Assembly: GCA_034414555.1 (NCBI GenBank)
Contig: DAOUMA010000008.1
Coordinates: 78,560 to 142,559 of the forward strand
Direction: 5' to 3'
Length of the DNA stretch: 64,000 nucleotides
Origin: Dehalococcoidia bacterium
GTDB lineage: Bacteria > Chloroflexota > Dehalococcoidia > GIF9 > AB-539-J10
Shown in pieces: positions 1 through 46,723 of the stretch; the stretch's first letter is position 1; each line of letters opens with the position of its first letter. Under the pieces are notes generated by a model. That model made no database searches. It was given only the letters and a program-made list of their open reading frames with translations, and was not told the origin of the DNA. The position numbers were made by a program, and so were the translations under genes.

Positions 1-276
1 GAATGTTATCGTGTTCTAAAAAATGGTAAGGAAGCCTGGATATATGATGGGTGTCCTGATGCCTTTAAAGACCAGGCTGATAGAAATAGAATGAGAAGGG
101 AATATGGGTTTTTGGTTTACCGAATTGGAACTAAAGTCGCTGGACTTCATGGTTTCGCCCGGGAAGAGTACGAGAGCGAAATTAAGGATATTTTAGACCA
201 AACAGAATTCAAAGATAGTTATCACATGGAGCTAACTGACATTTGGATGAAGATTACACTCAAGAAGCACAGGTGA
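1..276 (+). CDS. C-terminal portion of a protein whose start lies upstream of the window; function unknown
   Basis: Frame 1 is open from nt 1 to a stop at 274-276 (ECYRVLKNGKEAWIYDGCPDAFKDQ...KKHR*). The ORF track shows only the internal Met at 91. Confidence 0.35.
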   Translation, partial: ECYRVLKNGKEAWIYDGCPDAFKDQADRNRMRREYGFLVYRIGTKVAGLHGFAREEYESEIKDILDQTEFKDSYHMELTDIWMKITLKKHR

Positions 277-329
277 ACGAGTCTGGTCTTTCCCAACTGC
301 TTCGTTGCTCGCGAAGAGGCAAAGCTGGT

Positions 330-402
330 AAATACTCTTTTATACCAAATCTCAGCAAGCAGCGATAAAGCTCCCTGAGCCTGAACAATCTGCTGTTTTG
401 TT
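330..402. repeat. Degenerate copy of a repeat/scar sequence (tatacca...tcagcaagcagcgataaag..cctgaacaa..gttttgtt), about 85% identical to 6871-6950
   Basis: Direct by-eye alignment of 354-402 with 6901-6950. The 'tatacca' plus 'tcagcaagcagcg' context is shared with 6874-6913. Confidence 0.5.
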
Positions 403-454
403 CCCGGAATAGTTGACTGGAATAACATTCGTCCCCTGGGCTGCTGGCAGATTA

Positions 455-470
455 GTGGTGCTATAATCAA
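455..470 (+). promoter_or_regulatory. Candidate extended -10 promoter element TGcTATAAT (459-467) inside the recurring motif GGTGCTATAATC, about 90 nt upstream of the AbfD-like gene
   Basis: Sequence motif. The same 12-mer recurs at 15886-15897 and 23014-23025. Strong SD GGGAGGTG sits 7 nt before the ATG at 557. Confidence 0.4.
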
Positions 471-556
471 TGTGTTATATTTGTGGTCGACTTATTCCAT
501 GTTGTTAAGGAGAAGCCGAAGTCAAGCAAAAAAGACGACAAGGGAGGTGATGTATC

Positions 557-2026
557 ATGCCATTGAAAACCGCTGCAGAGTACATCGAGAGTCTGCGTAA
601 GCTGAAACTGGACCTCTATCTACTTGGTGAAAAGGTGGAGAATTGGGTTGATAATCCTATTATCAGGCCATCAATCAACGCTGTGGCGATGACCTACAAG
701 CTTGCTCACGAGCCCAGAAACAAGGAGCTGGCAACCACGGATTCGGTGCTTACCGGAAAGAAGGTAAACAGGTTTAACTCTCTCTTCAAGAGGACCGGTG
801 ATATGGTCAGTAAGGTAAGATTACAGAGGGAGCTGGGACAAAGGACAGGCTGTTGTTTCCAGAGGTGTGTTGGTCTTGACGCCATCAATGCTGTTTTTAG
901 CACCACCTACGAAATTGACCGGGCGCACGGAACCGAGTATCACCACAGGTTTAAAGAGTGGCTGGAGTATGTTCAACAGAATGACCTCTGTGTCCAGGGT
1001 GCCATGACCGATGTTAAGGGCGACCGGGCGGTGGCTCCCAGCAAGCAGGCTGACCCGGACATGTTTGTGCATGTGGTAGAGCGGAGGAGCGACGGCATCA
1101 TCATAAGGGGGGCAAAAGCAAGTCAGACGGGAACCACAAATTCACATGAAATGCTCATTATGCCAACCCTGAGAATGCGGGACGGCGATGAGGACTATTC
1201 CCTGAGCTGTGCTATACCAACAGACGCTGAAGGCGTACACCTCATCTATGGAAGACAGTCCTGCGATACGCGCAAGCTCGAGGAGGGTGACATCGATGTC
1301 GGTAACTACAGCTTCGGCGGGCAGGAGACACTGACTATCCTGGACAACGTCTTTGTCCCGTGGGACAGGGTTTTTATGTGCGGGGAGATCGAATTTGCCA
1401 TTATGATGGTGGAGAGATTCGCCGCTTATCACCGGCAGAGCTACGGCGGTTGTAAGCCGGGCATAGCTGATGTGCTTATTGGAGCGGCGGCCTCAATGGC
1501 TGATTACAACGGGATACGCAGAGCCCCTCATATCAGGGAGAAGCTTGGGGAGATGATTCACCTCGCTGAAACGATACATGCCTGCGGACTGGCTTGCGCC
1601 TACGAGGGGTGGCAGACTATGTCCGGCAACTACCAGTCCAACATCCTTTTAGCCAATGTATGTAAGCACAATGTGACGCGGTTTCCCTACGAGCTTTGCC
1701 GGCTTGCCGAGGACATAGCCGGCGGTATTCTGGTAACGCTGCCCTCCGAAAAAGACTTCAGGCATCCTGTGATGGGCAAATATATCGATAAGTACCTGAA
1801 GGGAATACCTGGTGTACCTACAGAGCACCGGATCCGCATGTTGACGCTCATCCACTCCATGACTTTTGGCCAGGTAGCTCCCAGTTATCGCACGGAGTCG
1901 CTGCATGGAGCTGGCTCGCCTCAGGCACAGAAAATTATGATTGAGCGCGAGACGGATATGGACCTCAAGCAGAGGCTCGCCCGCAGCCTGGCCGGCATCG
2001 ACAAAAGGGAAGACGTGACTGCTTAG
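557..2026 (+). CDS. 4-hydroxybutyryl-CoA dehydratase / vinylacetyl-CoA isomerase-like flavoenzyme (HpaB/AbfD family)
   Basis: 489 aa. N-terminus MPLKTAAEYIESLRKL and the overall pattern are typical of the HpaB/AbfD family. A CxxxC pair (GCCFQRC) and a later H/C (ETIHACGLAC) are consistent with AbfD Fe-S ligands. SD GGGAGGTG lies upstream. Confidence 0.65.
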   Translation: MPLKTAAEYIESLRKLKLDLYLLGEKVENWVDNPIIRPSINAVAMTYKLAHEPRNKELATTDSVLTGKKVNRFNSLFKRTGDMVSKVRLQRELGQRTGCCFQRCVGLDAINAVFSTTYEIDRAHGTEYHHRFKEWLEYVQQNDLCVQGAMTDVKGDRAVAPSKQADPDMFVHVVERRSDGIIIRGAKASQTGTTNSHEMLIMPTLRMRDGDEDYSLSCAIPTDAEGVHLIYGRQSCDTRKLEEGDIDVGNYSFGGQETLTILDNVFVPWDRVFMCGEIEFAIMMVERFAAYHRQSYGGCKPGIADVLIGAAASMADYNGIRRAPHIREKLGEMIHLAETIHACGLACAYEGWQTMSGNYQSNILLANVCKHNVTRFPYELCRLAEDIAGGILVTLPSEKDFRHPVMGKYIDKYLKGIPGVPTEHRIRMLTLIHSMTFGQVAPSYRTESLHGAGSPQAQKIMIERETDMDLKQRLARSLAGIDKREDVTA

Positions 2027-2033
2027 TTTCCAT

Positions 2034-2780
2034 ATGAACAAACATATCAAGGAGAAATTCATCCTGCTCTGGAAAAAGTATTTTGACGGTGCGGAACTCC
2101 CGGTTATTTTCTATTATACCAATGAAGAAGGACATGCCAGGCTGGTCGAGCCCGATTCGGTGCCCGGGTGCCTGATTGGGATATTAGTGGAGGTCAGGAA
2201 GGGGAGGTCTTTGTGTCTTAATGCGGACTCAGTCGGCTGTCCTGGGGGCAAACGATACCTTGGCTTTACGGAAGGGGTTATGCCAGACTTTGAATACTTC
2301 CTCTCCTACGGAATCCCTGGTAAGTTGACCGGTGAGCGCTATTGCAAATCTCCGCAACTGGTCGCGGAAATAATGAAACGCTCGCCTGCGTTCAAAGCAC
2401 CGGGACGCTTCATAATATTTAAAAGATGGGACAAGCTTGAGGAGTCAGACGACCCGGAGGTTGTTATCTTCTTTGCGGAGCCCGATGTTCTCTCTGGGCT
2501 TTTTACCCTGGCGCGTTTTGATGAAGCTGAGCAAAATGCCGTATTCACCCCCTTTGGCTCGGGCTGTTCCACAATTGTCCATTACCCGTATCTTGAACGA
2601 GATTCCGCCCGCCCCAGAGGAGTCATCGGAATGTTCGACCCTTCAGCGCGTCCTTCTGTTCCCAACAATGTGCTCACATTCTCAGTACCTATGAACAAGT
2701 TTGTCCGGATGGTTGAGAATATGGAGGAGAGCTTTCTCATCACAGATTCATGGCGCAAGATACGAAAAAGACTGAAATAG
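2034..2780 (+). CDS. Conserved hypothetical protein (possibly DUF169-like); two conserved GC..G motifs
   Basis: 248-aa ORF. A paralogous 5' fragment of this gene (codons about 17-33) is present as a remnant at 6849-6892. Confidence 0.4.
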   Translation: MNKHIKEKFILLWKKYFDGAELPVIFYYTNEEGHARLVEPDSVPGCLIGILVEVRKGRSLCLNADSVGCPGGKRYLGFTEGVMPDFEYFLSYGIPGKLTGERYCKSPQLVAEIMKRSPAFKAPGRFIIFKRWDKLEESDDPEVVIFFAEPDVLSGLFTLARFDEAEQNAVFTPFGSGCSTIVHYPYLERDSARPRGVIGMFDPSARPSVPNNVLTFSVPMNKFVRMVENMEESFLITDSWRKIRKRLK

Positions 2781-2862
2781 GCCGGAACGGAAGTCCATTT
2801 TGCCTGGCTGGCTCCGCTGAGATTCTTCTTGCCCGCCTTTTTTTATTGTCATCGCGAACGGG

Positions 2863-2913
2863 AAAATCCCTCTAAATCCCCCTTTAGAAAAGGGGGAGTA
2901 AGGGGGATTTGAC
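2863..2913. repeat. Palindromic hairpin repeat, copy 1 (aaatcccccttt agaaa agggggag taagggggattt)
   Basis: Internal inverted repeats. A second copy with the same ends lies at 3057-3120. Confidence 0.6.
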
Positions 2914-3056
2914 ATCCTAGGAAAAGCAAAACTCAAAAATCAAAGGGCAAAATGGCGGAGCAAAAATGAAAAAGCGGTCAGCGATTAGCTGAAGGCTGAT
3001 AGCTGAAAACTGCTAAACTGAACTTTGAATTTAGAGTATCCCGCATAACTTCGTAC

Positions 3057-3120
3057 AAAAATCCCTCTAAATCCACCTTTAGAAAAGGGGGTTCAACGCC
3101 CCCGTAAGGGGGATTTGACC
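3057..3120. repeat. Palindromic hairpin repeat, copy 2 (aatccctctaaatccaccttt agaaaaggggg ... gggggatttgacc)
   Basis: Shares aatccctctaaatcc and gggggatttgac termini with copy 1. Intergenic position. Confidence 0.6.
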
Positions 3121-3380
3121 ATTTGGGAAGCAGTGAGATCACAAATAGTTTCGTGACTAACTATAATTTGTCATTTTGCTTTTTTATCGGTGATGTTTAA
3201 TATTGTTCGGAATTTAGTGCTTTGAGTTTAGGATTTACCCGGGGACTGGCCTATTTCATATTCTATAGCAATATTGTCAGCCGGCGAATGGGGGTGTAAA
3301 ATAAATGCAGTACCTGGCGTAGAAGAGCCAGGATGTGCATATGGCTCATTGGCTTGTTGTGCCGGAGCTAAATATAGGAA

Positions 3381-3905
3381 TTGGAGGTAAGTGTGGTGAA
3401 ATACCGCCATATTATTTTACTGGTAATTCTTCTACTGGGAGCAATACTGATATCAGGATGTAACGCAGGGCAGAATGCGGCACAAGCGAAGAACGGCGAC
3501 ACTGTCCAGGTGGATTATACTGGAACGCTGGAAAACGGCACTGTATTTGATACATCGGTGGGAGGTGCACCTTTGAACTTTACTTTAGGTGCAGGTCAAG
3601 TGATTCCCGGGTTTGAACAAGCTGTCCTGGGGATGAAAGTCGGGGAATCGAAAACCGTTACCATTCCCGCGGATGAGGCCTACGGCCGGTACAATGATAC
3701 CCTGGTAGTGGTAGTAAATCGAGAGGACCTTCCGGCGGACCTGAATCCAGAGGTTGGTCAGCAGCTGCAGGGGCCTCGACCAGGTGATGGAACAGGCGTA
3801 GGCACTATAACCAATGTCACTAACACGACGATAACAGTAGATTTTAACTCCCCTCTTGCGGGGGAAAACCTGACCTTTGTAATTAAGCTTTTGAGCATAC
3901 AATAA
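3381..3905 (+). CDS. FKBP-type peptidyl-prolyl cis-trans isomerase, predicted lipoprotein
   Basis: Signal peptide with lipobox LISGC. FKBP core VQVDYTGTLENGTVFDTS...FTLGAGQVIPGFEQAVLGMKVGE. Confidence 0.8.
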   Translation: MEVSVVKYRHIILLVILLLGAILISGCNAGQNAAQAKNGDTVQVDYTGTLENGTVFDTSVGGAPLNFTLGAGQVIPGFEQAVLGMKVGESKTVTIPADEAYGRYNDTLVVVVNREDLPADLNPEVGQQLQGPRPGDGTGVGTITNVTNTTITVDFNSPLAGENLTFVIKLLSIQ

Positions 3906-3964
3906 ATTACCTTTTATAAGGTTAAGTGGTAGCGTCGTCTGCTGGTCTGCTGTAAGATTCCAGC

Positions 3965-5689
3965 TTACCCGCCCTCTTCGTGGTATATGTACTTGCCGCC
4001 TCGCAGCCATGAGGCAACGCTGGCGACAAGACACACCACAGCGGAGAAGGTCATCACCTCGGTAATGCCGTGGTCAAAAGCCCCGGCGATAAGCTGTGGG
4101 AAGAAGGCTCTGGAGGTTATAGTCGCCACCTGCCCCGCGGACAGGGTATGGAGCACTCCTGAAGGGATCAGCGTTCCCAGCGGGTTATAGCCCAGGAATG
4201 CCGCAAACAGGTATCCTATTGGCGGTATACCGGCCAGCTGTTGTGCGACCTGTGCGGGCACACCCTGTTGGGTAAGGCCGCTGAACATAGCCGCTGGCAC
4301 CGAGGCAGTCATGCCGATGATGAGGAGGGAGAAAAAAATGCCGATGGACAGTGGCATCCCCATGTTATTGAGTGTCGCCCTCATGCCGGAACTTACGCCG
4401 CGATGTCTCGCCGGGACACTGTTCATTATCGCGGCTGTGTTCGGAGCTGCGAACATCCCCATGCAGATGCCATTGAACAGGATTAGTAGCGCGAACAGCA
4501 GATAGGGAAAGTCCACCGGCAAAAATCTCAGCAAGACGAAGCTGGCGGCAGCCAGTATCATCCCGCCGGTAGTGAAATAACGTGCCCCAAAACGGTCAGA
4601 CAGCCAGCCGAAGAGTGGCCCGGCTAGCAGGAACCCCACGCCCATGGGTAACATGTAAATCCCTGCCCAGAGTGGCGTGACCTCAAAATCATATCCATGC
4701 AGCGGCAACCAGATGCCCTGTAGCCAGATGGCAAGCATAAACATCAGCCCGCCCCGTGCTACGGATGCCAGGAACGCGGCTGCATTGCCCGCGGCGAAAG
4801 CGCGGATGCGGAATAAGTTGAGCCGGAACATCGGTGCTCGAACACGCGCTTCGATAAGAATGAACACCGCAAGGAGAACAATTCCGCCGGCAATCATGCC
4901 CACCACGAATGGCGTTGTCCAGCTCATCGGGGAAGTGCCGCTGGGGCCAATGCCATAGGTGATGCCTACCAGTAGCATAATCAGGCCGGCAGCAAAGGTG
5001 AGATTCCCCCCCCAGTCGATAGTCTCTCTTTTCCGAATTCCTATCTCTCGGAGTGAGAGGTATGACCAGATGGTCCCGGCAATGCCTATGGGCACGTTGA
5101 CCAGGAATACCCACCGCCACCCTATCTGGGCTAAAAGCCCACCTGCCAGGATACCTAAGAGAGTGCCGACAATGAAAGCTACCTGGTTCAGCCCGAGGGC
5201 CATGCCGCGCTGATTTTCGGGAAAGGCGTCCGTCAGGATAGCCGCCGAGTTGGCAAACAAAAAAGCACCGCCGATACCCTGCACCAGCCGGAAGAGGATT
5301 AATTCCAGTGCTCCGGCGTCCCCCGTGCTCCAGGCAATAGCACACAACCCGGAGCCGACGGTGAAGATGGCAAAGCCGAGGTTGTACATACGGGTGCGCC
5401 CGAACATGTCTCCCAGACGCCCGAAGGTGACCACGAAGACAGCTACAATTACCATGTAGCCCATGAGCAACCAGAGCAGATAGTTGAAGCTTTCTGGGGC
5501 TAGAGGGTTAATATTGATGCCTCTGAAGATGACCGGCAGTGCCAGCAGTATGCTCGTGCTGCTGAGCGAAACCATAAGCACGCTGAGTGTGGTGTTTGAA
5601 AGGGCGATCCACTTATAACGAGGCCCTACCTGGGGACCGGGAGTGGTTGTCGAGTCTCGTGTCACTTTTCTTAAATCTCCTGCATTCAA
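3965..5689 (-). CDS. MFS transporter, 14-TMS drug:H+ antiporter (EmrB/QacA-like) family
   Basis: 574 aa with many hydrophobic helices. Typical MFS motifs are present (GRLGDMFGR, and LGP..G..L). Confidence 0.75.
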   Translation of the reverse strand: MNAGDLRKVTRDSTTTPGPQVGPRYKWIALSNTTLSVLMVSLSSTSILLALPVIFRGININPLAPESFNYLLWLLMGYMVIVAVFVVTFGRLGDMFGRTRMYNLGFAIFTVGSGLCAIAWSTGDAGALELILFRLVQGIGGAFLFANSAAILTDAFPENQRGMALGLNQVAFIVGTLLGILAGGLLAQIGWRWVFLVNVPIGIAGTIWSYLSLREIGIRKRETIDWGGNLTFAAGLIMLLVGITYGIGPSGTSPMSWTTPFVVGMIAGGIVLLAVFILIEARVRAPMFRLNLFRIRAFAAGNAAAFLASVARGGLMFMLAIWLQGIWLPLHGYDFEVTPLWAGIYMLPMGVGFLLAGPLFGWLSDRFGARYFTTGGMILAAASFVLLRFLPVDFPYLLFALLILFNGICMGMFAAPNTAAIMNSVPARHRGVSSGMRATLNNMGMPLSIGIFFSLLIIGMTASVPAAMFSGLTQQGVPAQVAQQLAGIPPIGYLFAAFLGYNPLGTLIPSGVLHTLSAGQVATITSRAFFPQLIAGAFDHGITEVMTFSAVVCLVASVASWLRGGKYIYHEEGG

Positions 5690-5699
5690 CTGCCTGACA

Positions 5700-6335
5700 T
5701 TATGACACGATTTGAACGCCCCAGACCTTAAGAATTTCCTCGTGGGTTACCACTTCGCACAGGCTTCTTAAGTTCGCCAGCGACCTCTCATGTGCGTCCT
5801 TGTTGGCTGAGGATACCCCATCGCTAACTATCACCACATAATAACCCCGGTTCAATGCCTCTCTGGCAGAGGATTCAACGCCCCACTCCGTAGATATACC
5901 TGTGAAAACCAGTGTTTCTATGCCTCCATACCTGGCGATATAGTCAAAATTCGTGCCTATAAATATGCTGGCCGTATTCTTGTTTAGGACGATGTCTTCC
6001 CGCAAAGGAGCTATCACCTCGGCGATTTCCAGCGCCTTTGGGTCATCACCAAAGGACGAGCGAAGTTGTTTTACATCCTTTATCCCTATTCGTTTCATCT
6101 GCTGGGCTAGCGCCGCCGGCGCCTGGAAGCGGGCAGGCAAAGGGGTTATTTTTGTATAGACCACCGGCACTTGAATCTTTCTCGCTGTCTGAAGCAGCGC
6201 TTCTACTGAGTTGAGAATCTCGTTTTTATTGAATACCCTGTTGACCAGCATATTTTGCATATCCCAAACTATCAGCAGCGAATGCTCTGGAGCTATAATA
6301 TCGGGCAGTTCGGTGTAGAATTTACTTGTCGCCAT
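5700..6335 (-). CDS. Isochorismatase-family (cysteine hydrolase-like) protein
   Basis: 211 aa. LLIVWDMQN...VVYTK...LVFTGISTEWGVESSAREA fits the isochorismatase fold pattern. The usual catalytic Cys is not obvious. Confidence 0.55.
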   Translation of the reverse strand: MATSKFYTELPDIIAPEHSLLIVWDMQNMLVNRVFNKNEILNSVEALLQTARKIQVPVVYTKITPLPARFQAPAALAQQMKRIGIKDVKQLRSSFGDDPKALEIAEVIAPLREDIVLNKNTASIFIGTNFDYIARYGGIETLVFTGISTEWGVESSAREALNRGYYVVIVSDGVSSANKDAHERSLANLRSLCEVVTHEEILKVWGVQIVS

Positions 6336-6842
6336 GAGATTCCTCCTCTTTACTTCATGTTATGCCATATTCCTTACCAATAAAAATCAAGATGCCGAAA
6401 AGAAGACACGCAATGCCTATGAAAATTGACGGGCGTATAAAAATAATTGGTCGCATATTCACCTTCTTCATTTATTAAGGCTGTTTAATTTTCAAAAGCC
6501 TTGTTTTTAGCTTCGTCATGGTTGTCCCGGAAATTTCTCACCCCCGAGCTTTGTAATGCGACCATTCAAGGTCGTGCAGCACGAGGCTAAAGCCTGGCAC
6601 TACATTTTTAAACATCCGCTCATTATATCAATTGAAGCGTGCTTTTGCTATAAATGGTGGCGATATATTAGCGAAGGTAACGGGTTGTGCTGTGGTTGGT
6701 CTGGAAGGAGCCATAGTTGAGGTGGAGGTTGACATATCATCTGGATTGCCTTCGTTTGTCAATGTTGGGACGCAATGTTAACAAGAGTATTCCTTTTGAG
6801 CTGGCTTTGACTGAGTAAACGGATATACCCGCAATCAACTCC

Positions 6843-6950
6843 TGTCGGGGTGGAACTTCCGGTTAATTTCTATTATACCAACGAGGAAGGAGTAAATTTC
6901 AGCAAGCAGCGATAAAATTCCCCAAGCCTGAACAAAATTGACGTTTTGTT
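6843..6950. repeat. Composite scar at the left border of the low-GC operon. It is a remnant of a paralog of the 2034..2780 gene (encodes VELPVNFYYTNEEG...) fused to a copy of the 354-402 repeat
   Basis: 6849-6892 aligns to 2090-2133 with about 6 mismatches. 6901-6950 aligns to 354-402 at about 85%. It reads in frame as a gene fragment ending in a stop. Confidence 0.6.
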
Positions 6951-7039
6951 ACATTACATTCTAGGCTTTTGTAAAATAGGTGGATACATAGAAAGGTTCA
7001 TGACATATTGGAATTGCATTTCATCAGCTAGGACTTTAC

Positions 7040-7702
7040 TCACGCAGGATTCCTAGCAATAAAATCACGCACACCTTGCACCATCAGAGCAACTTGTTCT
7101 TTTGAATATTCATTGTACTTGCCGTGTGCAGCATTGTTACGAAGCCCCAGCCACGCGGTGATACTTTTCTGGTCGAGTTTAGAATAAACGTTAGCGCCAG
7201 CGAGTTCTGCATTCAGACCATCGGCTTTCTTAGGCAGAGACCCCTTAGTCACTGGGATACTATGAGCCTGACATAATTTTCGCAACTGCTCTTCAAGAAC
7301 GCCACCGATTAGAACAGCTGCAGGGTCTTTGTAGCCTTCTGTAAGAAGATAGTCAGCCATCTCCAGAAAATCGCCAAAGATGTCCCCATGGATAATCTCG
7401 TAAACTGATCGTAGGTAACCTGCCTCGTAGTCGGTTCTTAGTGCTTTCAAAATACCGGGAAGGACTATTAAATTGTAAGCCTCATTCTCACCGTATTTCT
7501 TGAGAGCAGCGCGGGCATTCTCTGCATATCGGCTACCACGGGGAGCGAGCCGCTCTATAGCTGCGGCAAGTATCGTAACAAGCTCTGGCACTTCTGTGCC
7601 CAAGTCTGAGCAGTCATCATACTTGGAGCGTGACTTGGCCTTCGCCCATCTCTCAAGTGCTTTGTCGATCTGATTTAGAATAGCCTCTTGATTAATAGAC
7701 AT
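7040..7702 (-). CDS. Hypothetical protein with a C-terminal Rx4H motif (LRNNAAHG), possibly HEPN-like (DUF4145-like)
   Basis: 220 aa. The Rx4H motif lies near the C-terminus. It is the last gene of the nine-gene minus-strand operon, 11 nt after the radical SAM ORF. Confidence 0.45.
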   Translation of the reverse strand: MSINQEAILNQIDKALERWAKAKSRSKYDDCSDLGTEVPELVTILAAAIERLAPRGSRYAENARAALKKYGENEAYNLIVLPGILKALRTDYEAGYLRSVYEIIHGDIFGDFLEMADYLLTEGYKDPAAVLIGGVLEEQLRKLCQAHSIPVTKGSLPKKADGLNAELAGANVYSKLDQKSITAWLGLRNNAAHGKYNEYSKEQVALMVQGVRDFIARNPA

Positions 7703-7713
7703 TGTCTGACCCC

Positions 7714-8481
7714 TTAACGCGGCGCATTATATGAAAAAGCAAGATGATCCTCATACGGCTCCATTGCCTCGCGATGGAAGATAGCTTCCTCCGGCTGTTC
7801 TATTATGTGCTTAAACTCGCCAACATCTTTGCCAAAAGCCTTCTCAAAGAATGGCCTTCTCGGCCCCACCACACCGTGAGTAGCGTGAAGAATGCATTGT
7901 ATACCTCTTAGTTGTCTCTTAGTCCAATTTGGACTGATATATTTCCTATCTTTCGCATCAAGAGGTATGTACCGCATTGGGAAGGAGAAGATACTAAGGC
8001 CTAACTCCTCATTAAGTTCTATATTTATAAGAAGTCTTTTATAAAAGTCTTTCGGGCAATCATCAAAATTGAACAATATGTAATTGGATAGATGCCTGAT
8101 TCCGTACTTATGAGCTAAGCGCACTTTCTCTATATAGAGTTTTTCAAACTTAATGTTGTCAAAAGCTATTCGTAGTGGTTTGAGGGCCAACTGACTGAGA
8201 AGTTCCATCTTACCTTCGTCAAGTAGCCGTGCATCAACACCTTGGTTAAAATCAAGATACCGATAAGCATTCCCAAACCTAGCTCCTTTTTGGAATCCGT
8301 ACTTCTTTATCTCCTCAACTATGCGTGGAAACTCAGCAGAAGCCAAGACATTGTTGTCGAGCAATATGAGGTCTTTCTTGTCAGGATCCAACTGTTGCTC
8401 TAAAGGTATAAAGGGTATAAAGTGCGGCTCTAACCTGTGTACAGCACAGTAAGGGCAGTGGTTTATGCAACCTTTAGTCAT
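7714..8481 (-). CDS. Radical SAM core domain protein; CxxxCxxC (C-INH-C-PY-C) begins at residue 5
   Basis: MTKGCINHCPYCAV. 255 aa. The start ATG overlaps the stop of the upstream B12-binding-domain ORF (ATGA). Confidence 0.75.
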   Translation of the reverse strand: MTKGCINHCPYCAVHRLEPHFIPFIPLEQQLDPDKKDLILLDNNVLASAEFPRIVEEIKKYGFQKGARFGNAYRYLDFNQGVDARLLDEGKMELLSQLALKPLRIAFDNIKFEKLYIEKVRLAHKYGIRHLSNYILFNFDDCPKDFYKRLLINIELNEELGLSIFSFPMRYIPLDAKDRKYISPNWTKRQLRGIQCILHATHGVVGPRRPFFEKAFGKDVGEFKHIIEQPEEAIFHREAMEPYEDHLAFSYNAPR

Positions 8482-8972
8482 ATATCCAATGCTGTGTTGT
8501 TCGTGTAATACTCGTACACATCATTGGTTAGAGCATAGTCAGGTTTCAACCTGTCAACCTCTTCCCAGAGACCAAAGTGTGGAGCTATGCCTGTTTCCCT
8601 TTCAATGTCTGCTTGCAAGAGCGATGCAAGTATGCCTCCAACTTTTATGTTGTCATTCTTAAGCTTGTTACGCTGATAAAATTTAATAGTTTCTATAGTC
8701 CTTTTCCATTGGAAGGTGAACAGAGTGGCTATGTAGATGATGTCCCATCTCTGGTCTCTTATTGCGGCACTGGTTCCTTTGTAGAAAACGACCTCATCAC
8801 CATGCGATTTGTGATAGGTTGAGATTTTCATTAGACCGAGGGGAGGATACTTTACTTTATAGGCTGGCTCTACAAGTAGAACTCTTTTCGGCCTGTTAAT
8901 CAAAATATGTGGGCCTTCTTCAATATTAGGAGCCAGCTTGTACTGCTTAGTTACTGTTATTTCAGTGCTCAC
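8478..8972 (-). CDS. Cobalamin (B12)-binding-like domain, the N-terminal module of a class B radical SAM enzyme encoded as a separate ORF
   Basis: RVLLVEPAYKVKYPPLGLMKISTYHKSHGDEVVFY matches the LLinP..pPLGLlyla..l...Ghev signature of radical-SAM B12-binding domains. 164 aa. ATGA overlaps at both ends. Confidence 0.6.
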   Translation of the reverse strand: MSTEITVTKQYKLAPNIEEGPHILINRPKRVLLVEPAYKVKYPPLGLMKISTYHKSHGDEVVFYKGTSAAIRDQRWDIIYIATLFTFQWKRTIETIKFYQRNKLKNDNIKVGGILASLLQADIERETGIAPHFGLWEEVDRLKPDYALTNDVYEYYTNNTALDI

Positions 8973-10180
8973 GTATTCTCCAAAATCCTCTCCAATTTTA
9001 TTTGATAGTCAGTATTATTCCGGTCAATAGTGTAGTGCAGTGCAGTTGGGTCTGATTGGTAAATATCTTCTAGTAACCCAGCAGCCTTATCATATTCAAG
9101 GAAGAGGCCTTGGCCATCGCGCAAGCTCAGTATATTTGAATAGAGAAGCAATGGCCTTAACAGGCAATAGCCACCGACCCCAGCCAAATGTTTGTAACCT
9201 GGCCAAATAAAGGTCACGAACTTGTCATGCCCAACTTCTTGTGGCAACACCTTTCCATAAGCTTGAGCTACAAATTCAAAGAACCCCGAATCCAAAAGTG
9301 CTTTTATCACGTTTTCTGGGTATTTCTTCTCCATTTCTGCCGCATAGGCTTGTGTTAGCGAGATTAGTTTGAGTCCTACCCTGGTGAACCGCCATGTTCT
9401 AGACCCAGCTGACTCTACAGCCCCCATATCAACCAGCCATTCCAAGCGAGGTATTGTTGTCTGTTCACGTCTAGACCCAGACCCTTGCTCCTCGGCTTTC
9501 TCCTCTATGTTCTTGAGAATCTGTTGCCTGCCCTTTTCAAGAATCTGTAGCTGTTTCTGGTCGGTTAGAGTATACGCGGAGCCAAGGAAGCTATTCCTTA
9601 TATTCTCCATTATGCCAGGAATGAGTGAACCGGCATCAAGGTAATTGAAACTTCCATCTGAAAATCGATTTAGAAGGACATCATAAAAGGGTACTAAGAA
9701 ATCGCCATCCGCAGCTAGCAGGTTGTATAAGAAGAATACTTGCTCTCCACGTTCCAAGACAAGTGGATTTACGGCCGAAGGGTGGTCGAATGCCTCGAGT
9801 TGCTCCTTCGACATCAAACCCTGATATAGAACAAGACCCATGTCGGTTCGTTCATACGAGGCTGTCACCAATCCTAGACCGCGGGGTAAGTATTCCGCAT
9901 ACTCATTGAAGCCAAGTTTAGAGAGCCATCCCGTTTGTGATGGATGACCATAGATATATAGCTTTTGCAGGCTCGTCACATCAGTTCCTTCGCCCAATCC
10001 TTTAAGCCATGTGGCGAGAGCCTCATCCGAAACAGTAAATTTATGCTCTTCAAGCCTTCTGCGCAGTACATCTGACATCTGGTCTGGGGTTCTAGCGAGT
10101 TCGGAAAAAGCCAACACTGCCTTACAAAACCCAAGTCGTTGCATAGAAAGTCTGGAACGACTAATCCATCGAATAGCCAT
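8969..10180 (-). CDS. Hypothetical protein of the operon, 403 aa, no recognisable motif
   Basis: Long ORF packed tightly between the HerA-like gene (2-nt gap) and the B12-domain ORF (4-nt overlap). No motif identifiable by eye. Confidence 0.5.
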   Translation of the reverse strand: MAIRWISRSRLSMQRLGFCKAVLAFSELARTPDQMSDVLRRRLEEHKFTVSDEALATWLKGLGEGTDVTSLQKLYIYGHPSQTGWLSKLGFNEYAEYLPRGLGLVTASYERTDMGLVLYQGLMSKEQLEAFDHPSAVNPLVLERGEQVFFLYNLLAADGDFLVPFYDVLLNRFSDGSFNYLDAGSLIPGIMENIRNSFLGSAYTLTDQKQLQILEKGRQQILKNIEEKAEEQGSGSRREQTTIPRLEWLVDMGAVESAGSRTWRFTRVGLKLISLTQAYAAEMEKKYPENVIKALLDSGFFEFVAQAYGKVLPQEVGHDKFVTFIWPGYKHLAGVGGYCLLRPLLLYSNILSLRDGQGLFLEYDKAAGLLEDIYQSDPTALHYTIDRNNTDYQIKLERILENT

Positions 10181-10182
10181 AT

Positions 10183-11580
10183 CTATGCCTCAAAACCTCC
10201 ATGTGCACTGACTCTTGGGCGGACTTCCATGACAAAACATCTGGGAGTGTTGGTATCAGACACTACAGCTTGACCAACTCCTATGTCTCGTATGAGTTCA
10301 TTTATCGATATATTGACGTTGTTATCCTTGATTTCCGTTGGCAAAGGTGATTTCAAGTTATCTAGAACGTAGTCTATATCAGATTGAGAGACTAATTTGT
10401 GAACGATGAACGTTTCCACTTGAGATAGCACGTTCGGGTCGAGTGCTCTTGGTTGTTGGGTAGTCACTACAAAGGAAAGGCCAAAATTTCTGCCTTCCTT
10501 GACAAACCTTATCAAACTAGCGGTAGCAGAAGTGCGTTTACCGGCCGGGATTACGTTTTGTGCTTCGTCAATAACGACCCAAACCTTGGGTACATAGCGT
10601 TCTACCAGTTCTTTTTTCTCTTTTTTCTGCTGCTCATCTAATTTCGGATTAATAAGAAGATCCTTTGTCATTTCAGAAGCTTCGGCTCTTTCCTGCAATA
10701 GCCTCTTGATAACTACTGAAACAAGTACACCACGCAGATCTTCTGGCAAACCGTTAAGTAGCACTACCGAAGCACGGCCGGCGGTAATCAGGTCACGCAG
10801 TGGCGTTCCGGAACCTGAGAAGATAGGATGCCGGTCATAAGCCCGAAGTTGTTGTAGGACAGCCCTTCTTGTCTCCGCCCGATATACGGATGCCTCATTC
10901 TCCTGGTCCTTCTCTATACATTCAATGAAGTCCCAAATCGTTTGGTCTTTCTTAGCACGATGGTAGTTGCCTTCAGTATCGTACCATCCCAAATCAACCA
11001 CCTTCTGAAATACCTCAGTAAAGTATTGTCCCTTAATATCGCGGACTATATCTAAGTCGAGAAGTGAGCTCCAGTCATCCAATGAGAAGTCTGGTACATT
11101 AAGATACAGGTCCTTGAAAGCTGGCGATGATAGACGATACCGGTAACCGGCAGGAACCCATACGTCAACGTCTAAGGGTACAGCCGGCAATCCCCAAGAA
11201 CGGAGTATATCTGCCTGACTCTTCATTTCCGCGGACTGTTGCTCTGCCGATAGGACTGGAATATTCATCCACTGGAAAATGTTTAGAGTGTCGAATAGAA
11301 GCAAGCCCCTCCGTTTGCTTGTAGCACCAATCGCTGAATTTGACTCAGAGGTACAGAGCGCCTCAATGAGCGAGCCCAAAGTATATGATTTACCCTGTCC
11401 TCGTTTTCCAACAATTGCTATGACCTTCTCTTTCGATACGTCAAATTTGATATTGTAGCGACGTCCATATTCAGCTAGTTTCCCCAAGAAAAGCCATTCT
11501 TTCGGTTCACCGGCCTCTGAGCCTGACGTACACCAATCACCCTGAGCACTCATTTCGGGGTATAGACCATACCTTTTCAT
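10183..11580 (-). CDS. HerA/FtsK-like ATPase (DUF87-type)
   Basis: Walker A IVGKRGQGKSYTL. Walker B VWVVIDEAQNV. C-terminal EGRNFGLSFVVTTQQPRALDPNVLSQVETFIVHKL is typical of HerA/DUF87 ATPases. Confidence 0.8.
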   Translation of the reverse strand: MKRYGLYPEMSAQGDWCTSGSEAGEPKEWLFLGKLAEYGRRYNIKFDVSKEKVIAIVGKRGQGKSYTLGSLIEALCTSESNSAIGATSKRRGLLLFDTLNIFQWMNIPVLSAEQQSAEMKSQADILRSWGLPAVPLDVDVWVPAGYRYRLSSPAFKDLYLNVPDFSLDDWSSLLDLDIVRDIKGQYFTEVFQKVVDLGWYDTEGNYHRAKKDQTIWDFIECIEKDQENEASVYRAETRRAVLQQLRAYDRHPIFSGSGTPLRDLITAGRASVVLLNGLPEDLRGVLVSVVIKRLLQERAEASEMTKDLLINPKLDEQQKKEKKELVERYVPKVWVVIDEAQNVIPAGKRTSATASLIRFVKEGRNFGLSFVVTTQQPRALDPNVLSQVETFIVHKLVSQSDIDYVLDNLKSPLPTEIKDNNVNISINELIRDIGVGQAVVSDTNTPRCFVMEVRPRVSAHGGFEA

Positions 11581-11595
11581 GGATTTAATCTCCTG

Positions 11596-12831
11596 CTAAA
11601 TACGTGGCATAGCTGAATCTAGAAGAGTCTTATCCGCTATCACATATTGATTACTTGCTTTTCCTTGGTGATAAGCAGCAGCCGCAACTTGTGCTAGCGC
11701 ATTTATTATCATGCGGGCATTTCTCGTCTGTTCGTTTTGAAATAGTATTTCCACCGCTCTATCAAGAGCATCTTCCGTGAATGGTAGACTCTGCCAGGTA
11801 ACTTTGCCAGCCAAGCCGACCTCGTTAATAAACTCCTTAGCTCTTTCTTCATCCTTTATATTTTGCATCAAATTGCTCATGAAGGCTCGCATGTCGTTTT
11901 TCGTATTGATAAGCCGAATTAAGTTGATAAACGCTTCGTCCACATTCTGTCGGGTTACGCCTAATCGAGACAGAATGTCATCGGCTGGCTGGATAATGGC
12001 TTTGGGAATAAACTGTTGTCCGGTTCCGAAATAGGCAATTACGAATCCAACATCCTGGTTATAGTCTGAGGCAAGTTGCAGAAAGGCATGATGTATCTCT
12101 ATCAATCTCTTGTCGACATTGTTGAGATCTTGTGCTTCGTCCATGAGAAAGACAATGGCCTTGCCTTGAGTCTTCCGGACCAAGTTACCCAGATTTAATG
12201 TGACATTAACCATATCTTCGGCGTTTTCCAACGCCTTTGTGGCAGCTAGGTCTTGAGCTTGGGCGCCCTTTTCCAGTTTGGAACCCCTAAGCCACTGCCA
12301 GGCTGGTAGAGTCGACCGTGTTTCCCTCAAAAAATACCCGGAAAGAACGTTAGCAAGAGACCTTTTCAGATTTTCATCTCCAAACTTGAATAGCTTTTTC
12401 ATCTCGTTGGATAAATCAGCGGTTTTGTCCTCAGAAGAACGGTTAAATTCTTGAACAATTAGCCTGAGGAAGGCTTCGCCCATCGAATCTAACATCTTGC
12501 CATGAATATACTTCCAGCCGCCAAGATCGGGTATACGCTCATCATATGGCGCAAGCCCGAGGAAGAAACATTTTGCAGGGTAATTCCCTGGCTTTTTGTC
12601 AAACAAATACTTGATATGATACAGCGTGTGAGTCTTTCCATCGCCGAATCTTCCGATAACTCCACATTTTGGGACGCCTCTTATATCGAAGTCACTCCTA
12701 ATCCGAGCCAATAGCTCGTCACTTACCTGCTTGTTGCCAAAGAACCATTCAGCATCTGCCTCTGGGTTTACCCTGAAGCGAGGGCGATTCAGGCAACAGT
12801 AGTCCTTAAGCTCCATATCTTTGATATCCAT
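11596..12831 (-). CDS. P-loop NTPase, paralog C of a tandem trio
   Basis: Walker A GRFGDGKTH at about residue 60. Walker B IVFLMDEAQ at about residue 218. Same architecture as 13383..14573 and 14580..15776. Confidence 0.7.
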   Translation of the reverse strand: MDIKDMELKDYCCLNRPRFRVNPEADAEWFFGNKQVSDELLARIRSDFDIRGVPKCGVIGRFGDGKTHTLYHIKYLFDKKPGNYPAKCFFLGLAPYDERIPDLGGWKYIHGKMLDSMGEAFLRLIVQEFNRSSEDKTADLSNEMKKLFKFGDENLKRSLANVLSGYFLRETRSTLPAWQWLRGSKLEKGAQAQDLAATKALENAEDMVNVTLNLGNLVRKTQGKAIVFLMDEAQDLNNVDKRLIEIHHAFLQLASDYNQDVGFVIAYFGTGQQFIPKAIIQPADDILSRLGVTRQNVDEAFINLIRLINTKNDMRAFMSNLMQNIKDEERAKEFINEVGLAGKVTWQSLPFTEDALDRAVEILFQNEQTRNARMIINALAQVAAAAYHQGKASNQYVIADKTLLDSAMPRI

Positions 12832-12867
12832 TTTCGCCTCCTTTTGCTGAGTTCCAATAAACTAAAG

Positions 12868-13386
12868 CTAGCCAAACAGATTCACTTTAGTGACCTGTTT
12901 GAGTTCTGTTCCCGCTCTATTCGGGATGTCTTCTTTACCTAATACTTCGAGTTCTTCAACTATAGCACAACCTGCTCCCTTCCCCTCCACGAGTAGCCCA
13001 ACCTCAAGAGCTCTAGTCGCTCTCCCCGAGAGGTTGGCAGAGCTTAGTAGTGCAAACCCGAATGGCTCGCAACGACAAACGTATATCTTCGCATGCAAGT
13101 CATTGTTGTAGTATAGCGTCACAAATGGGCTTCCTCTGAAAAGCTTAGCTGCTTCCGTGTTCAGTTGTTCTCTCTCGGGACTGCGCATGATAATTGTCGT
13201 TGGCACCTTTTCCCTTCTTATGACATATAGAATAGCCTCCAATGAGAAGGGCTCTCCGTCAAGACCCAATATCCATGGAGATACTATTACTAGGCTCGTA
13301 ATTCCTGTAGCTTGCATGAATCGCTCAAAGAACAAAGTGTGTCCTCCCTCACGAACAATGGTGACAAATCTCTCTTCCCATCTCAT
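12868..13386 (-). CDS. Phospholipase D-family (single HKD) nuclease-like protein (Nuc/BfiI-like)
   Basis: YNNDLHAKIYVCRCEPFGFALLSSANLS has HxK followed by S-x-N. 172 aa is consistent with a one-HKD dimeric nuclease. Confidence 0.6.
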   Translation of the reverse strand: MRWEERFVTIVREGGHTLFFERFMQATGITSLVIVSPWILGLDGEPFSLEAILYVIRREKVPTTIIMRSPEREQLNTEAAKLFRGSPFVTLYYNNDLHAKIYVCRCEPFGFALLSSANLSGRATRALEVGLLVEGKGAGCAIVEELEVLGKEDIPNRAGTELKQVTKVNLFG

Positions 13387-14573
13387 ATCTCTAGCAGACC
13401 TGCTGCGTGCTCAAGTGTTAGCTCCTTGTTTTCTTGGCAAACGTCTAGGCTAACTACCAAGGCTCTGATAAAATCTCTAGGAGTGCTGGCTGAAGCTGAC
13501 ACGCATCTTCGCACGAATAGCCTTATTGAGGATTTACCAAAATCATTACGCCCCCAACCGTAAGCCTTAAAATGCAAGTCTCGAACCCCTTCAGCAAGCT
13601 CAGTTAATTCCTTGCTTCCTAACTGGTATAGCTCTGTAAAATTTCCCAGGGCTTTATCAAATCCATATGGCATACTCTTAAAGAAAGCTGGGGTAGTCGC
13701 ATATACAAAGTACGAGTATGGTGTACTACGAGCGGCGGTAGCCAGGCTGTATAGATTCTTATATGCCTCTTCTCTCCTTACTGCGCTGGGAAGTGAAGGT
13801 ATAGCGTCTGCCTCATCCAGCAATGTTACAAGCCCTTTTAAACCCATAAACCTGAGCATTTTTGTCAGATTGCCGAGCATTTTGAGTGCGTTCTCTGGGG
13901 AAACATTAGTACTCATACCGATACGCTTGGCATCAGTCATCGTGGTTTCACCTTGGAGCCAGCGAAGAGCTGTGTCTACCTTCCGTGGCCTAGCAAAATG
14001 AACACCTTCAAAGTACTGTGTCAGCGCGTTCTTGACATTTGCATCTAAGTCAGTGAGTATCCAAGGAGCAAGACTATGTCTCGTCACATACTCCTTGACT
14101 TCTAGTGCCCAGTTCTCCAGAACATCTTCCAGAGCCGGCCTATCTGCACAACCGGCCGTCCTGAGGCCCTTGATCACATGGCGATACACGCTCTGAAGAT
14201 TATCCATAGGGCATTCCCTAGAGGAAAGTGTTAGAAAACTGCTTGCAAATTCCTCTATATGTGCATACTCCTGAAGAACCCTTAGCGTAAAGGACTTACC
14301 CATACCAAATATTCCGTCTATGACCCGCAAGCAGGAACTGCCATTAGCTACAAGTGTTAAGTCCTGTTTCATGGAATCAAACAAGTCTTCCCGCCCAACT
14401 GCCAAGACAAGAGCACCCTGGGTAGGCGCTGTTCCTTGGCGACATGATTCCACCAAGGTCAAGGCCATCTCCTTGGATACGTCCCTGACAGATGGTAGCT
14501 TGGGGCGTCTTCGAGCCCTCTGAAGCAGTGCTCTAAGTTTCGGGTCATCTCCAATAGTACCCATTTTCGTCAC
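13383..14573 (-). CDS. P-loop NTPase, paralog B
   Basis: Walker A GIFGMGKSF. Walker B LVTLLDEAD. 396 aa. 4-nt ATGA overlap with the PLD gene. Confidence 0.7.
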   Translation of the reverse strand: MTKMGTIGDDPKLRALLQRARRRPKLPSVRDVSKEMALTLVESCRQGTAPTQGALVLAVGREDLFDSMKQDLTLVANGSSCLRVIDGIFGMGKSFTLRVLQEYAHIEEFASSFLTLSSRECPMDNLQSVYRHVIKGLRTAGCADRPALEDVLENWALEVKEYVTRHSLAPWILTDLDANVKNALTQYFEGVHFARPRKVDTALRWLQGETTMTDAKRIGMSTNVSPENALKMLGNLTKMLRFMGLKGLVTLLDEADAIPSLPSAVRREEAYKNLYSLATAARSTPYSYFVYATTPAFFKSMPYGFDKALGNFTELYQLGSKELTELAEGVRDLHFKAYGWGRNDFGKSSIRLFVRRCVSASASTPRDFIRALVVSLDVCQENKELTLEHAAGLLEI

Positions 14574-14579
14574 GTCTTG

Positions 14580-15776
14580 CTAGTCTTCATGCTCAAATTC
14601 AAGTTTCTCTATTAGATCGTCCAGCATAGCGTTTTCACGCTTCTCTTCTGTAACATCCAGAACGCCTATTAGACCCTTTATGAAAGACCTAATCATGCGC
14701 GGGTCACTAGTTTCAAGAAAGGCAGATACGTACTTGCTAATTGCTCTTGGGTTGAAATAGTCTCCGGCATTCCATTCATATGCCTTGGAGTGTGTGTCAA
14801 CAATGCGAGGTGCTAGCTCCTCCAAAGTGGATTGGTCGAAGGGTGGCAAAGCCATAATTATTGACCTAGCACTTGACTGTTGTAGTCCTCCTCCTATAAC
14901 ATCTTTGATTCTACTCCATAGTGCTGGATATGATCGGGCTCCATTATCAGGGTCTGAGAGGAACTTTGGTGTAGTAGCAAAGAAAACGTAAAAACCTCGA
15001 TGTTCGTCAGGGTTATCCAGCAGTTTACGTATATTCTGGTTTGCTTCTTCACGTTTACGGGATTGAGTCAGTGACGTAATAGCCTCAGCCTCGTCTAAGA
15101 GTACAACAAGGCCAGCATAACCACAAGCCCGCACAAATCGCAAGAAAGAGCCAAGTATCTCACTTACATTCATTATAGTAACGTTAGAGCGTATTCCTTT
15201 TGATTTAAGTTCAGACATTACCTGGTATCCTTGTAGCCAAGCTAATATTCCCTGCATCCGAATTCGATGATCCGGAGAGTCTGTATTAGCGTATTCTAAG
15301 CATGCACGTAAGGCTGCTCTAAAATCCAACGAAGGCGCAATTTGACGTAGATTCGCCTCGACTTCTTGCGAAGAATGGTAAGGAAATCGCCTTGCCCAAT
15401 CCTCAAACATGTGTTCAATACCCTGTCCATCGGGTAAGGTTACGCCACGCATTATCTTCGGGAATATCACTTCAAACCTATCAAACGGAGCTTCTCTTGA
15501 ATTGAGTTCTACATATGACAACAAGAAATTCGCAGACAGGGCTTTTTCCTTGACTTGCATGAAGAAATGTGTCTTACCGCCGCCATAGGGTGCAGACAAG
15601 AAGCGGATTTTGCAGCCACCTTGCCCTATATAAGCTAGATCTCGAGATATAGATGCCAACCATTGCTCACGGCCGACCGAGTACAGCTCCAAGTGTCGTG
15701 CTGGCACAGTCCCTTGCCGAAATGATTCTATAATCGCTTCTGCATCAAACCGACCTAGCTCCCCCGTGCTACTCAT
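14580..15776 (-). CDS. P-loop NTPase, paralog A; first gene of the operon
   Basis: Walker A YGGGKTHF. Walker B LVVLLDEAE. 398 aa. The three paralogs share a long (about 160 aa) Walker A-to-B spacing. Confidence 0.7.
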   Translation of the reverse strand: MSSTGELGRFDAEAIIESFRQGTVPARHLELYSVGREQWLASISRDLAYIGQGGCKIRFLSAPYGGGKTHFFMQVKEKALSANFLLSYVELNSREAPFDRFEVIFPKIMRGVTLPDGQGIEHMFEDWARRFPYHSSQEVEANLRQIAPSLDFRAALRACLEYANTDSPDHRIRMQGILAWLQGYQVMSELKSKGIRSNVTIMNVSEILGSFLRFVRACGYAGLVVLLDEAEAITSLTQSRKREEANQNIRKLLDNPDEHRGFYVFFATTPKFLSDPDNGARSYPALWSRIKDVIGGGLQQSSARSIIMALPPFDQSTLEELAPRIVDTHSKAYEWNAGDYFNPRAISKYVSAFLETSDPRMIRSFIKGLIGVLDVTEEKRENAMLDDLIEKLEFEHED

Positions 15777-15824
15777 TGTGCCGCCCCGTGACCCATAGTA
15801 TATAACCTCGGACTCAGCGACACA

Positions 15825-15947
15825 ACAAAATGGCGTTTTGTGCAGTAGGACGAGTTACCATATTCAGTTTCATAGCCATTCTCGCGGGTGCTATAATCTC
15901 GATGAAAACGGCGGATTGTTCGGCGCTGTGCCAACTTTGCCGGTGTC
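15825..15947. repeat. Composite repeat at the right border of the operon: ggcgttttgtgcag, motif A (cgcgggTGcTATAATctcgatgaaaa), then motif B (gcgctgtgccaactttgccg)
   Basis: Motif A recurs at 23009-23035 and is related to 455-470. Motif B with its ttgtgcag prefix recurs at 17093-17127. Confidence 0.55.
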
Positions 15948-16071
15948 TACATTTTTCCAGAAATTCATCTACGGCTTGTGCTAATCATAATTCCTCCTCC
16001 TCATCATAACTGCTTAGCAACAGCAAACTTGATTGAAAGGCAGATAAGCTGTGTAACATCCGGAGACGGAG

Positions 16072-16977: not shown

Positions 16978-17092
16978 TATACACTATAAGTTATCGCCGT
17001 CTCTTTTGTGTGCCAGGTTGTAAAGTTGTAGCCTTAGTCAAGGGATTGGGCCCTTCGGCTGTTGGCATCAGCTCACACCCTAATTGCACCTT

Positions 17093-17127
17093 TTAGCGGT
17101 TTGTGCAGCGCTGTGCCAACTTTGCCG
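17093..17127. repeat. Copy of agcggtttgtgcag plus motif B (gcgctgtgccaactttgccg)
   Basis: Aligns to 15831-15844 joined to 15923-15942. The intervening approximately 80 bp that carries motif A at 15.9 kb is absent here. Confidence 0.55.
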
Positions 17128-46716: not shown

Positions 46717-46723
46717 TAGCGAG

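Follow-up and report, generated by a model that had tools for sequence, protein, structure and literature searches.

Introduction

Defense-system hotspots have mostly been described in cultivated Proteobacteria and Firmicutes, where the anchors are core genes, tRNA genes, or integrases. Short repeats can also delimit exchangeable modules, as in the pdif (XerC/XerD) modules of Acinetobacter plasmids, whose sites of ~26–28 nt consist of two inverted arms and a 5–6-nt spacer and are served by a recombinase encoded elsewhere, and repeats of the REP/BIME, ERIC, and MITE types are known hotspots of rearrangement. Within the Chloroflexi, integrons and CALINs are known (PMC4889954), a point that we have counted in favor of the attC reading weighed below, and in Dehalococcoides the islands that target ssrA leave the end of that gene behind as direct repeats (PMC3146451), a precedent for att-site duplication.

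The locus described here lies in a 64 kb stretch of DNA (hereafter the window), whose DUF169 homologues place it in the Dehalococcoidia-type Chloroflexi known from groundwater MAGs. In these uncultured groundwater Dehalococcoidia short conserved non-coding repeats form the borders of the hotspot, no recombinase is encoded close to them, and strain differences in restriction/defense operons and toxin-antitoxin modules fall exactly at the repeats. The reading that we prefer, and hold to be probable, is that positions 6841–6952 are a discrete conserved mosaic junction element, anchoring an FKBP-to-DegV hotspot on its left side, with cargo most likely exchanged at repeats that carry a palindromic motif, here termed J. 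Gene content was read from the ~65 ORFs of the window, and synteny was compared across ~10 metagenome contigs, in which mis-joining at repeats is possible in principle.

A mosaic of a gene fragment and an intergenic repeat

The left part of the window carries an HpaB/AbfD-like gene (557–2026), a DUF169 gene (2034–2780, Pfam PF02596), and an FKBP gene (3381–3905), together with an MFS transporter (3965–5689) and an isochorismatase (5700–6335), both on the minus strand. The original prediction had described, beyond these genes, a remnant of a DUF169-like gene at 6849–6892 fused to a copy of the sequence at 354–402; this observation is confirmed, and its interpretation is partly supported (see below). 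In the self-BLASTN that it had proposed, both similarities are significant within the window (E ~1e-10). Positions 6843–6891 are identical to 2084–2132 (plus strand, nt 51–99 of the DUF169 gene and the source sequence of the left half) at 42 of 49 sites (85.7%, E 2.3e-10), and 6894–6950 matches 347–402 at 47 of 57 sites with one gap (82.5%, E 7.9e-10), reaching 88% over the ungapped alignment of 347–388 with 6894–6935. A repeat search agrees on both, and self-BLAST of 6500–7100 against the window gave nothing above noise beyond them. The DUF169 piece also translates in frame up to a stop codon (VELPVNFYYTNEEGVNFSKQR), as had been stated.

The composite is thus made of a DUF169-derived fragment (6841–6891, plus strand), the left edge of which is a junction, and the right arm of an intergenic repeat unit (6892–6952, plus strand), in which a core (AAATTTCAGCAAGCAGCGATAAAATTCCCCAAGCCTGAAC) is followed by the J motif (GCCTGAACAAAATTGACGTTTTGTTA, 6926–6951, plus strand), an imperfect palindrome from which the contigs diverge onward. 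This right arm is 82.5% identical to the copy at the left of the window (copy A), 89.5% to L001 10834–10890 (the unit on the DUF169 side of that contig), and 96% to L012 189–237 (the unit in Dehalococcoidia MAG M62_259). A paralog had been suggested as the source of the gene fragment, but the piece is identical at 44–46 of 49 sites to the DUF169 gene of close relatives; it was therefore copied from that same lineage and does not come from a distant paralog. When relatives were searched for DUF169 homology upstream of the 49-nt fragment, the scores did not exceed those of shuffles.

Three other accounts of the fragment were tried and rejected. A single decayed DUF169 5' end (VELPVNFYYTNEEG, a frameshift, and KFQQAAIKFPKPEQN) would require an N-terminus that none of 120 homologues possesses, all of them reading EEGHAxLVxPxSVP(R/G)C. 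The DUF169 gene beside the isochorismatase in L010 belongs to another subfamily, has the wrong orientation, and lacks nucleotide similarity. Finally, the DUF169 piece might be kept in place by an extended -10 on the minus strand (TGGTATAAT, which is CTATTATACCAA reverse-complemented), but this would run antisense into FKBP in most contexts.

The unit itself is ~145 nt long, always terminates in J, and occurs twice in L001-type contigs, once intact directly after the DUF169 stop (L001 10748–10893) and once after a methyltransferase gene, where a HicB/HicA module, missing from the window, interrupts it (L001 7413–7481 and 8160–8229). Throughout related Dehalococcoidia contigs it trails the methyltransferase gene, the DUF169 gene, and other co-oriented modules. 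Copy A (305–405, plus strand, with J at 379–405), which lies past the methyltransferase gene and before the promoter of the AbfD-like gene, is the methyltransferase-side unit without HicBA, aligning to L001 10796–10893 over 305–402 with 78.8% identity (99 nt, E 2e-16). On the DUF169 side the window retains only a left arm after the stop codon (2781–2836, plus strand), and L001-type synteny breaks at 2835/2836. An nhmmer search with the core profile found two copies in the 64 kb and no third one.

An exact-pattern scan for the unit core matched 2 of 185,579 species genomes, both Dehalococcoidia, and 23 metagenome stretches, and gave no match in viral contigs, phage records, or plasmids. The core stands once per contig in the only two matching GTDB species genomes. 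Units and J sites are concentrated in the variable region, and the housekeeping DNA beside it (L001 1–5900, L010, L011) has none. Terminal inverted repeats of 26 nt are carried by the L012 unit and are clear in that copy only. Against Rfam, positions 1–20000 gave nothing at the gathering threshold or at E<=5, and a J-M-J region of L040 (see below) gave only a chance match.

Two further features were seen around these units. A palindromic element (AAAATCCCTCTAAATCCCCCTTTAGAAAAGGGGG) is present in two copies, 97% identical, at 2863–2896 and 3058–3091, in the 540-nt spacer from the DUF169-side half unit to FKBP, a spacer that is absent in L030. In the DegV-anchored relatives L037 and L040, the 227-aa methyltransferase whose gene ends at window position 276 stands past DUF6506, on the right side of DegV and ~10 kb from it (L040 20066–20749, L037 20173–20194), which implies that either a large rearrangement took place or the methyltransferase/AbfD/DUF169 block can itself move.

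The composite in related contigs

The L001–L009 contigs encode a DUF169 protein 94% identical to that of the window, with DNA 96.5% identical over 532–2835 and 1–311, and relatives retain AbfD-DUF169 as well as FKBP, between which more copies of the unit are found. A composite 92–95% identical to 6841–6950 follows FKBP in at least four other metagenome contigs (L015, L018, L022, and L027), ~115 nt past the stop codon, and a fifth contig (L023) has it after the same comM remnant as the window (86% identity over 485 nt). Since these contigs carry other cargo, the composite predates the island of the window. Two distinct left flanks converge on it at CC/TGTCGGGG; with the additional block 3918–6840 of the window on the left and differing cargo on the right, the 110-nt composite has a junction at either edge.

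The 2.9-kb block 3918–6840, which comprises the MFS transporter, the isochorismatase, a small ORF, and the comM remnant, takes the place of ~56 nt separating FKBP and composite in L015, L018, L022, and L027. The remnant (6665–6769, plus strand) preserves the first ~35 codons of a yifB/comM-type gene, with ATA for ATG and a stop at 6779–6781, and matches TIGR00368 positions 4–31 (E 0.002); a Mg-chelatase domain, as expected for the remainder of comM, was found in none of the window ORFs. The MFS-isochorismatase pair (window 3982–6384) recurs at 83–86% nucleotide identity in unrelated contexts in two Dehalococcoidia-like genomes (L010 and L011), adjoined by DDE transposase genes and, in L011, also by integrase gene fragments.

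Both the window and L030 keep only the left arm of the unit after DUF169, and the DUF169 piece and right arm stand after FKBP; L001-type genomes have the intact unit after DUF169, merely a short J site after FKBP, and no composite there. This distribution of arms fits a rearrangement or duplication of the DUF169 gene with its unit, followed by deletion. The simplest origin that we infer for the composite is a decayed second copy of the DUF169 gene plus unit, or else a duplication junction followed by an internal deletion, which could have occurred at an AAGGA/AAGAA microhomology, the exact path being conjectural.

A defense hotspot between FKBP and DegV

To the right of the composite the cargo differs by contig, and comprises HsdM/HsdS, HsdR/HsdS, a 1002-aa ResIII-nuclease, a PLD-SNF2 protein, Mrr with a methyltransferase, HerA, and, in the window, a BrxD/HerA operon; type I and type III-like restriction systems are both included. 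The window operon (7040–15776, minus strand) has nine genes and looks defense-like, with two BrxD-like ATPases, a PLD/DrmC-like protein of 172 aa, two HerA/mad8-like ATPases (411 and 465 aa), two proteins of 403 and 220 aa without a family match, and two small ORFs, of 164 and 255 aa, whose B12-binding/radical-SAM matches are weak and below threshold. Compared with PADLOC it matched no complete system, and it may represent an undescribed defense system. Logan contig L044 carries the same operon and terminates at the composite.

On the far side the cargo of L015, L017, and L018 joins sequence matching window 19299–19382, the right flank of the hotspot upstream of DegV. This flank is the 3' remnant of a small minus-strand gene (ending in CPVCHGVGYVEG and a stop) for a DnaJ-type zinc-finger peptide, which is intact in L015 (MKNPKLCPKCNGKGEV...CPVCHGVGYVEGS, then a stop). 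With FKBP and the composite as its left anchor, the locus has the conserved flanks, and the defense systems differing by strain, of a defense-island hotspot.

Beside the hotspot, two further observations concern the rest of the window. At 22654–23082 an acyl-CoA dehydrogenase ORF is truncated to 142 aa, with N and middle domains only; L037 and L040 have the full gene (342–391 aa), then MoxR, VWA, and AFOR genes that are absent at the window position. A stretch of lower GC (0.38–0.46) at 44000–49000, next to a tRNA-Gln(CTG) (43062–43135, minus strand), may be a second small island, most of its ORFs being without a Pfam match except for a zinc-ribbon ORF (45123–45713) and a metallophosphoesterase (48217–48798).

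The J motif and its arrangement around cargo

J is an imperfect palindrome of ~26 nt, with inverted arms of ~9–10 nt (yTGAACAAAA / TTTTGTTCAr) around a spacer of 5–6 nt, and sites with arms of mixed type exist. It also stands without the long unit, at 15824–15848 on the right border of the operon, at 15898–15926, and at 17084–17111. The first of these (AACAAAATGGCGTTTTGTGCAG, plus strand) closes the cargo and is an imperfect direct repeat of 6929–6948, so that the operon is flanked by imperfect direct repeats of ~20 nt. By chance, their pattern AACAAAATGRCGTTTTGT would be expected 0.01 times per window. Because the sites behind the J profile were hand-picked at junctions, its E-values (1e-5 to 1e-2) are partly circular.

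Directly after the closing J follows a mini-element, M, together with the J at 15898–15926 (15849–15926, plus strand). M contains a near-consensus rightward promoter with an extended -10 (TTCATA-17-TGcTATAAT, 15869–15897), and the ~100-nt J-M-J arrangement recurs in L017, L026, L030, L037, and L040. In the DegV-anchored L037 and L040 there are long arrays of HicAB, MazEF, RelB/ParE, HEPN/MNT, restriction-modification, and EamA modules between such elements (L037 2653–2759; L040 3010–3114 and 5371–5477), and the sequence of the right flank, 19299–19382, repeatedly trails J-M-J there (L037 2784–2867 and 6223–6299; L040 3140–3223 and 5502–5586). The window has an EamA module of this sort (15911–17127, the transporter at 16072–16977 on the minus strand) between 32-nt direct repeats that are 91% identical and each contain a J (15911–15942 and 17096–17127). 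An apparent permutation of EamA and M was set aside as a proof of cassette shuffling, being explained equally well by deletions between J copies.

Co-oriented J sites bound the cargo in the window, L015, L017, and L018, as in every contig with both ends visible. The same type III-like cargo was found after anchors of two different types, and the right half of J (TGACGAACTGTG) is identical in both cases. Further off, two J-like motifs were seen on the plus strand just after a gene, ACCGTAACAAAATGACGGTCTGTGCAA at 60919–60943 (E 0.002 with the profile) and another, weak, at 35868–35887, and J may not be confined to the hotspot.

Possible mechanisms of cargo exchange

Under the preferred reading, of a conserved junction element anchoring the FKBP-DegV hotspot, cargo would be gained, lost, or replaced in a cassette-like manner by recombination at or between J-bearing repeats, either by an enzyme encoded elsewhere in the genome or through homology between repeat copies. 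The repeat family, the conservation of the composite, its two junction edges, the diversity of the cargo, and the flanking J repeats are all plainly visible in the contigs compared, and recombination at the repeats is the mechanism that they suggest. Several points weigh on the other side. No recombinase domain was found in the window ORFs, the DNA fold of the composite is not significant (z -0.65), and J is degenerate. A junction falling at J is possibly a by-product, since homology must end at the edge of a conserved anchor, and remnants of genes (DUF169, comM, the zinc-finger gene, acyl-CoA dehydrogenase) lie at many junctions, which suggests imprecise events rather than clean site-specific exchange. 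A more specific proposal, tentative and rather unlikely, is that Dehalococcoidia possess an undescribed cassette system, integron-like but distant from its integrase, which recombines at the J-bearing units, with a palindromic core of ~26 nt sometimes set within a palindrome of ~145 nt. The DUF169 fragment could then mimic the left arm of a unit (GGAAC-N6-TTATTTTC vs. GGAAC-N6-CCATTTTG), and, if true, such a system would shuffle toxin-antitoxin modules, multi-gene defense systems, and metabolic genes (AbfD-DUF169, FKBP, EamA).

It is unlikely, in our estimate, that the repeats are passive bystanders, a mixture of decaying fragments and REP-/MITE-like repeats, with turnover proceeding via homologous recombination in FKBP and DegV after DNA uptake. 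The abundance of gene remnants at the junctions agrees with this, as do breakpoints that fall inside units (2835/2836 and the HicBA insertion), the MITE-like terminal inverted repeats of the L012 unit, the weak J-like sites at 35868 and 60919, and the lack of integrase, transposase, or other recombinase domains among the ~65 window ORFs. But passive repeats do not account well for a 110-nt composite with junctions at both edges and two different left flanks, nor for the co-oriented J repeats that flank the cargo wherever both ends can be seen, and the clustering of units and J sites in the variable region, away from the adjacent housekeeping DNA, with a core nearly single-copy per genome, differs from the dispersal expected of such repeats. 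The many dispersed copies, general terminal inverted repeats, and target-site duplications of REP/MITE elements were not found, no target-site duplication being seen at the units.

The units could also be genuine integron attC sites and the region a CALIN whose cassettes are moved by an IntI encoded elsewhere, which we consider improbable. They do trail co-oriented modules, and the arrays are rich in toxin-antitoxin modules, as is typical of chromosomal integrons. The consensus of the full unit folds into one long imperfect hairpin, with an outer AAC/GTT, a 6–7-nt spacer, and an inner CCATTTTG/CAAAATGG helix, and the AbfD-DUF169 module starts G/TTCCCGG and its terminal unit begins GCCGGAAC. 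Significant folding, as expected of the single-strand attC hairpin with its paired R''/R' and L''/L' boxes, was however found in the L012 unit only (z -3.1); L001b (z +0.78), copy A (z -0.48), and composite B (6841–6951, z -0.65) fold no better than shuffles, and the consensus fold of the composite is without the long hairpin. The AAC...GTT is present, but the R-box (RYYYAAC / GTTRRRY) is not kept: R' reads GTTACAT in the composite, GTTCCCG in copy A, and GTTGGGT in L001b, matching GTTRRRY in some copies only, and many sites have TGTG or TGTA instead. The sequence TGACGAACTG, which travels with the cargo, stands to the left of GTT, so that the crossover would not be at the G/TT boundary. Moreover, blocks of cargo can be as large as 9 kb, with nine genes that run on the opposite strand, HicBA interrupts a unit midway rather than following its end, and neither intI, an intI remnant, nor any Phage_integrase domain is found in the 64 kb. 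The units are themselves co-oriented, at spacings of 2.4–4.1 kb, as against the two or more attC sites within 4 kb on one strand by which a CALIN is recognized. Complementarity of a cassette start to its own R'' was dropped as a diagnostic: AbfD-DUF169 was suggestive and a second case, inside hicA, ambiguous, which is too few to be of use.

In its original form the prediction was of two equivalent scars, left by recombination between short repeats in this genome, bracketing an inserted block from AbfD to isochorismatase and marking the insertion of a low-GC island. This account is largely refuted, and we give it a very small probability. Copies A and B are indeed direct repeats 6.5 kb apart, there is microhomology at the joint of DUF169 and unit, and the minus-strand operon does start directly to the right of B, as predicted; its GC is lower, although only mildly so (0.40–0.47 vs. 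~0.47 for the whole window). However, the left scar, claimed at 330–402 as the same composite with an 18-nt deletion, could not be established: only TCTTTTATACCAA (12/13) resembles the DUF169 piece there, and the rest of 305–345 aligns with the canonical unit, making copy A another member of the repeat family. The bracketed block does not hold either, as only 3918–6840 is extra with respect to the FKBP-composite arrangement of relatives, in which AbfD-DUF169 and FKBP are separated by further units. That identical sequence in relatives without the island would speak against an insertion scar had been acknowledged from the outset, and the near-identical composite of L015, L018, L022, L023, and L027, with other cargo, does so in part. 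What stands is that a mosaic of DUF169 and the 354–402 sequence lies exactly on a recombination junction with foreign cargo to its right; what does not is that the insertion of this island made it.

Finally, an att-site duplication by an integrative element targeting the 5' part of DUF169 is extremely improbable, for although the fragment is sharp-edged (beginning at nt 51 with no homology upstream) and in direct orientation with the intact gene, and a repeat of nt 51–99 is present, there is no integrase between the two DUF169 copies, the interval 2133–6840 holds most of DUF169 plus the conserved FKBP, no relative lacks this interval as a unit, and the L001-type relatives without a composite after FKBP are better explained by rearrangement than by insertion of an element.

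If the repeats are active, they would provide a new way to build defense and toxin-antitoxin arrays, and the repeat core would be a handle for searching metagenomes for islands; should they prove passive, the locus still shows cleanly how a recombination hotspot collects gene remnants and repeats. In either case it carries a warning, that a scar adjacent to an island need not date from the arrival of that island.

Comparison with known systems

Like attC sites in CALINs, the repeats described here are imperfect-palindromic sites of ~110–150 nt at the 3' ends of co-oriented modules, with chimeric or hybrid sites, toxin-antitoxin and defense cargo, and no adjacent integrase (as in most CALINs). 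They differ in that the hairpin is significant in one copy only, the R-box consensus is not conserved, the crossover is apparently placed elsewhere than at G/TT, the multi-gene cargo extends up to 9 kb on the opposite strand, and the composite has a gene fragment for a left arm. With pdif and other Xer-exploiting elements they share short two-arm sites that bound discrete toxin-antitoxin or accessory modules, and the architecture of J is roughly 9–10 / 5–6 / 9–10, as against the 11-6-11 of a Xer/dif site. Unlike pdif, the J sites are direct rather than alternating, chromosomal, and variable in arm and spacer lengths; to our knowledge, J resembles none of the published dif consensus sequences. 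The window contains neither the dif site of the host nor its Xer genes.

REP/BIME, ERIC, and MITE repeats are likewise imperfect palindromes of 25–150 nt, located just downstream of genes and occurring in mosaic combinations, whereas those of this locus are clustered in one hypervariable region, and the GTDB scan shows their core at close to one copy in each genome. At the level of the whole locus, the E. coli hsd-mcr-mrr "immigration control region" and the ssrA-targeting islands of Dehalococcoides (PMC3146451) are also fixed loci with conserved flanks and strain-specific restriction or defense genes, and have gene remnants and short direct repeats at their borders. In contrast to these, the anchor here is a mosaic non-coding repeat drawn from a local family, with no integrase, tRNA, or tmRNA target. 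Rather than being filed as an attC, dif-type, or REP/MITE element, the composite behaves most like a cassette-boundary or anchor repeat.
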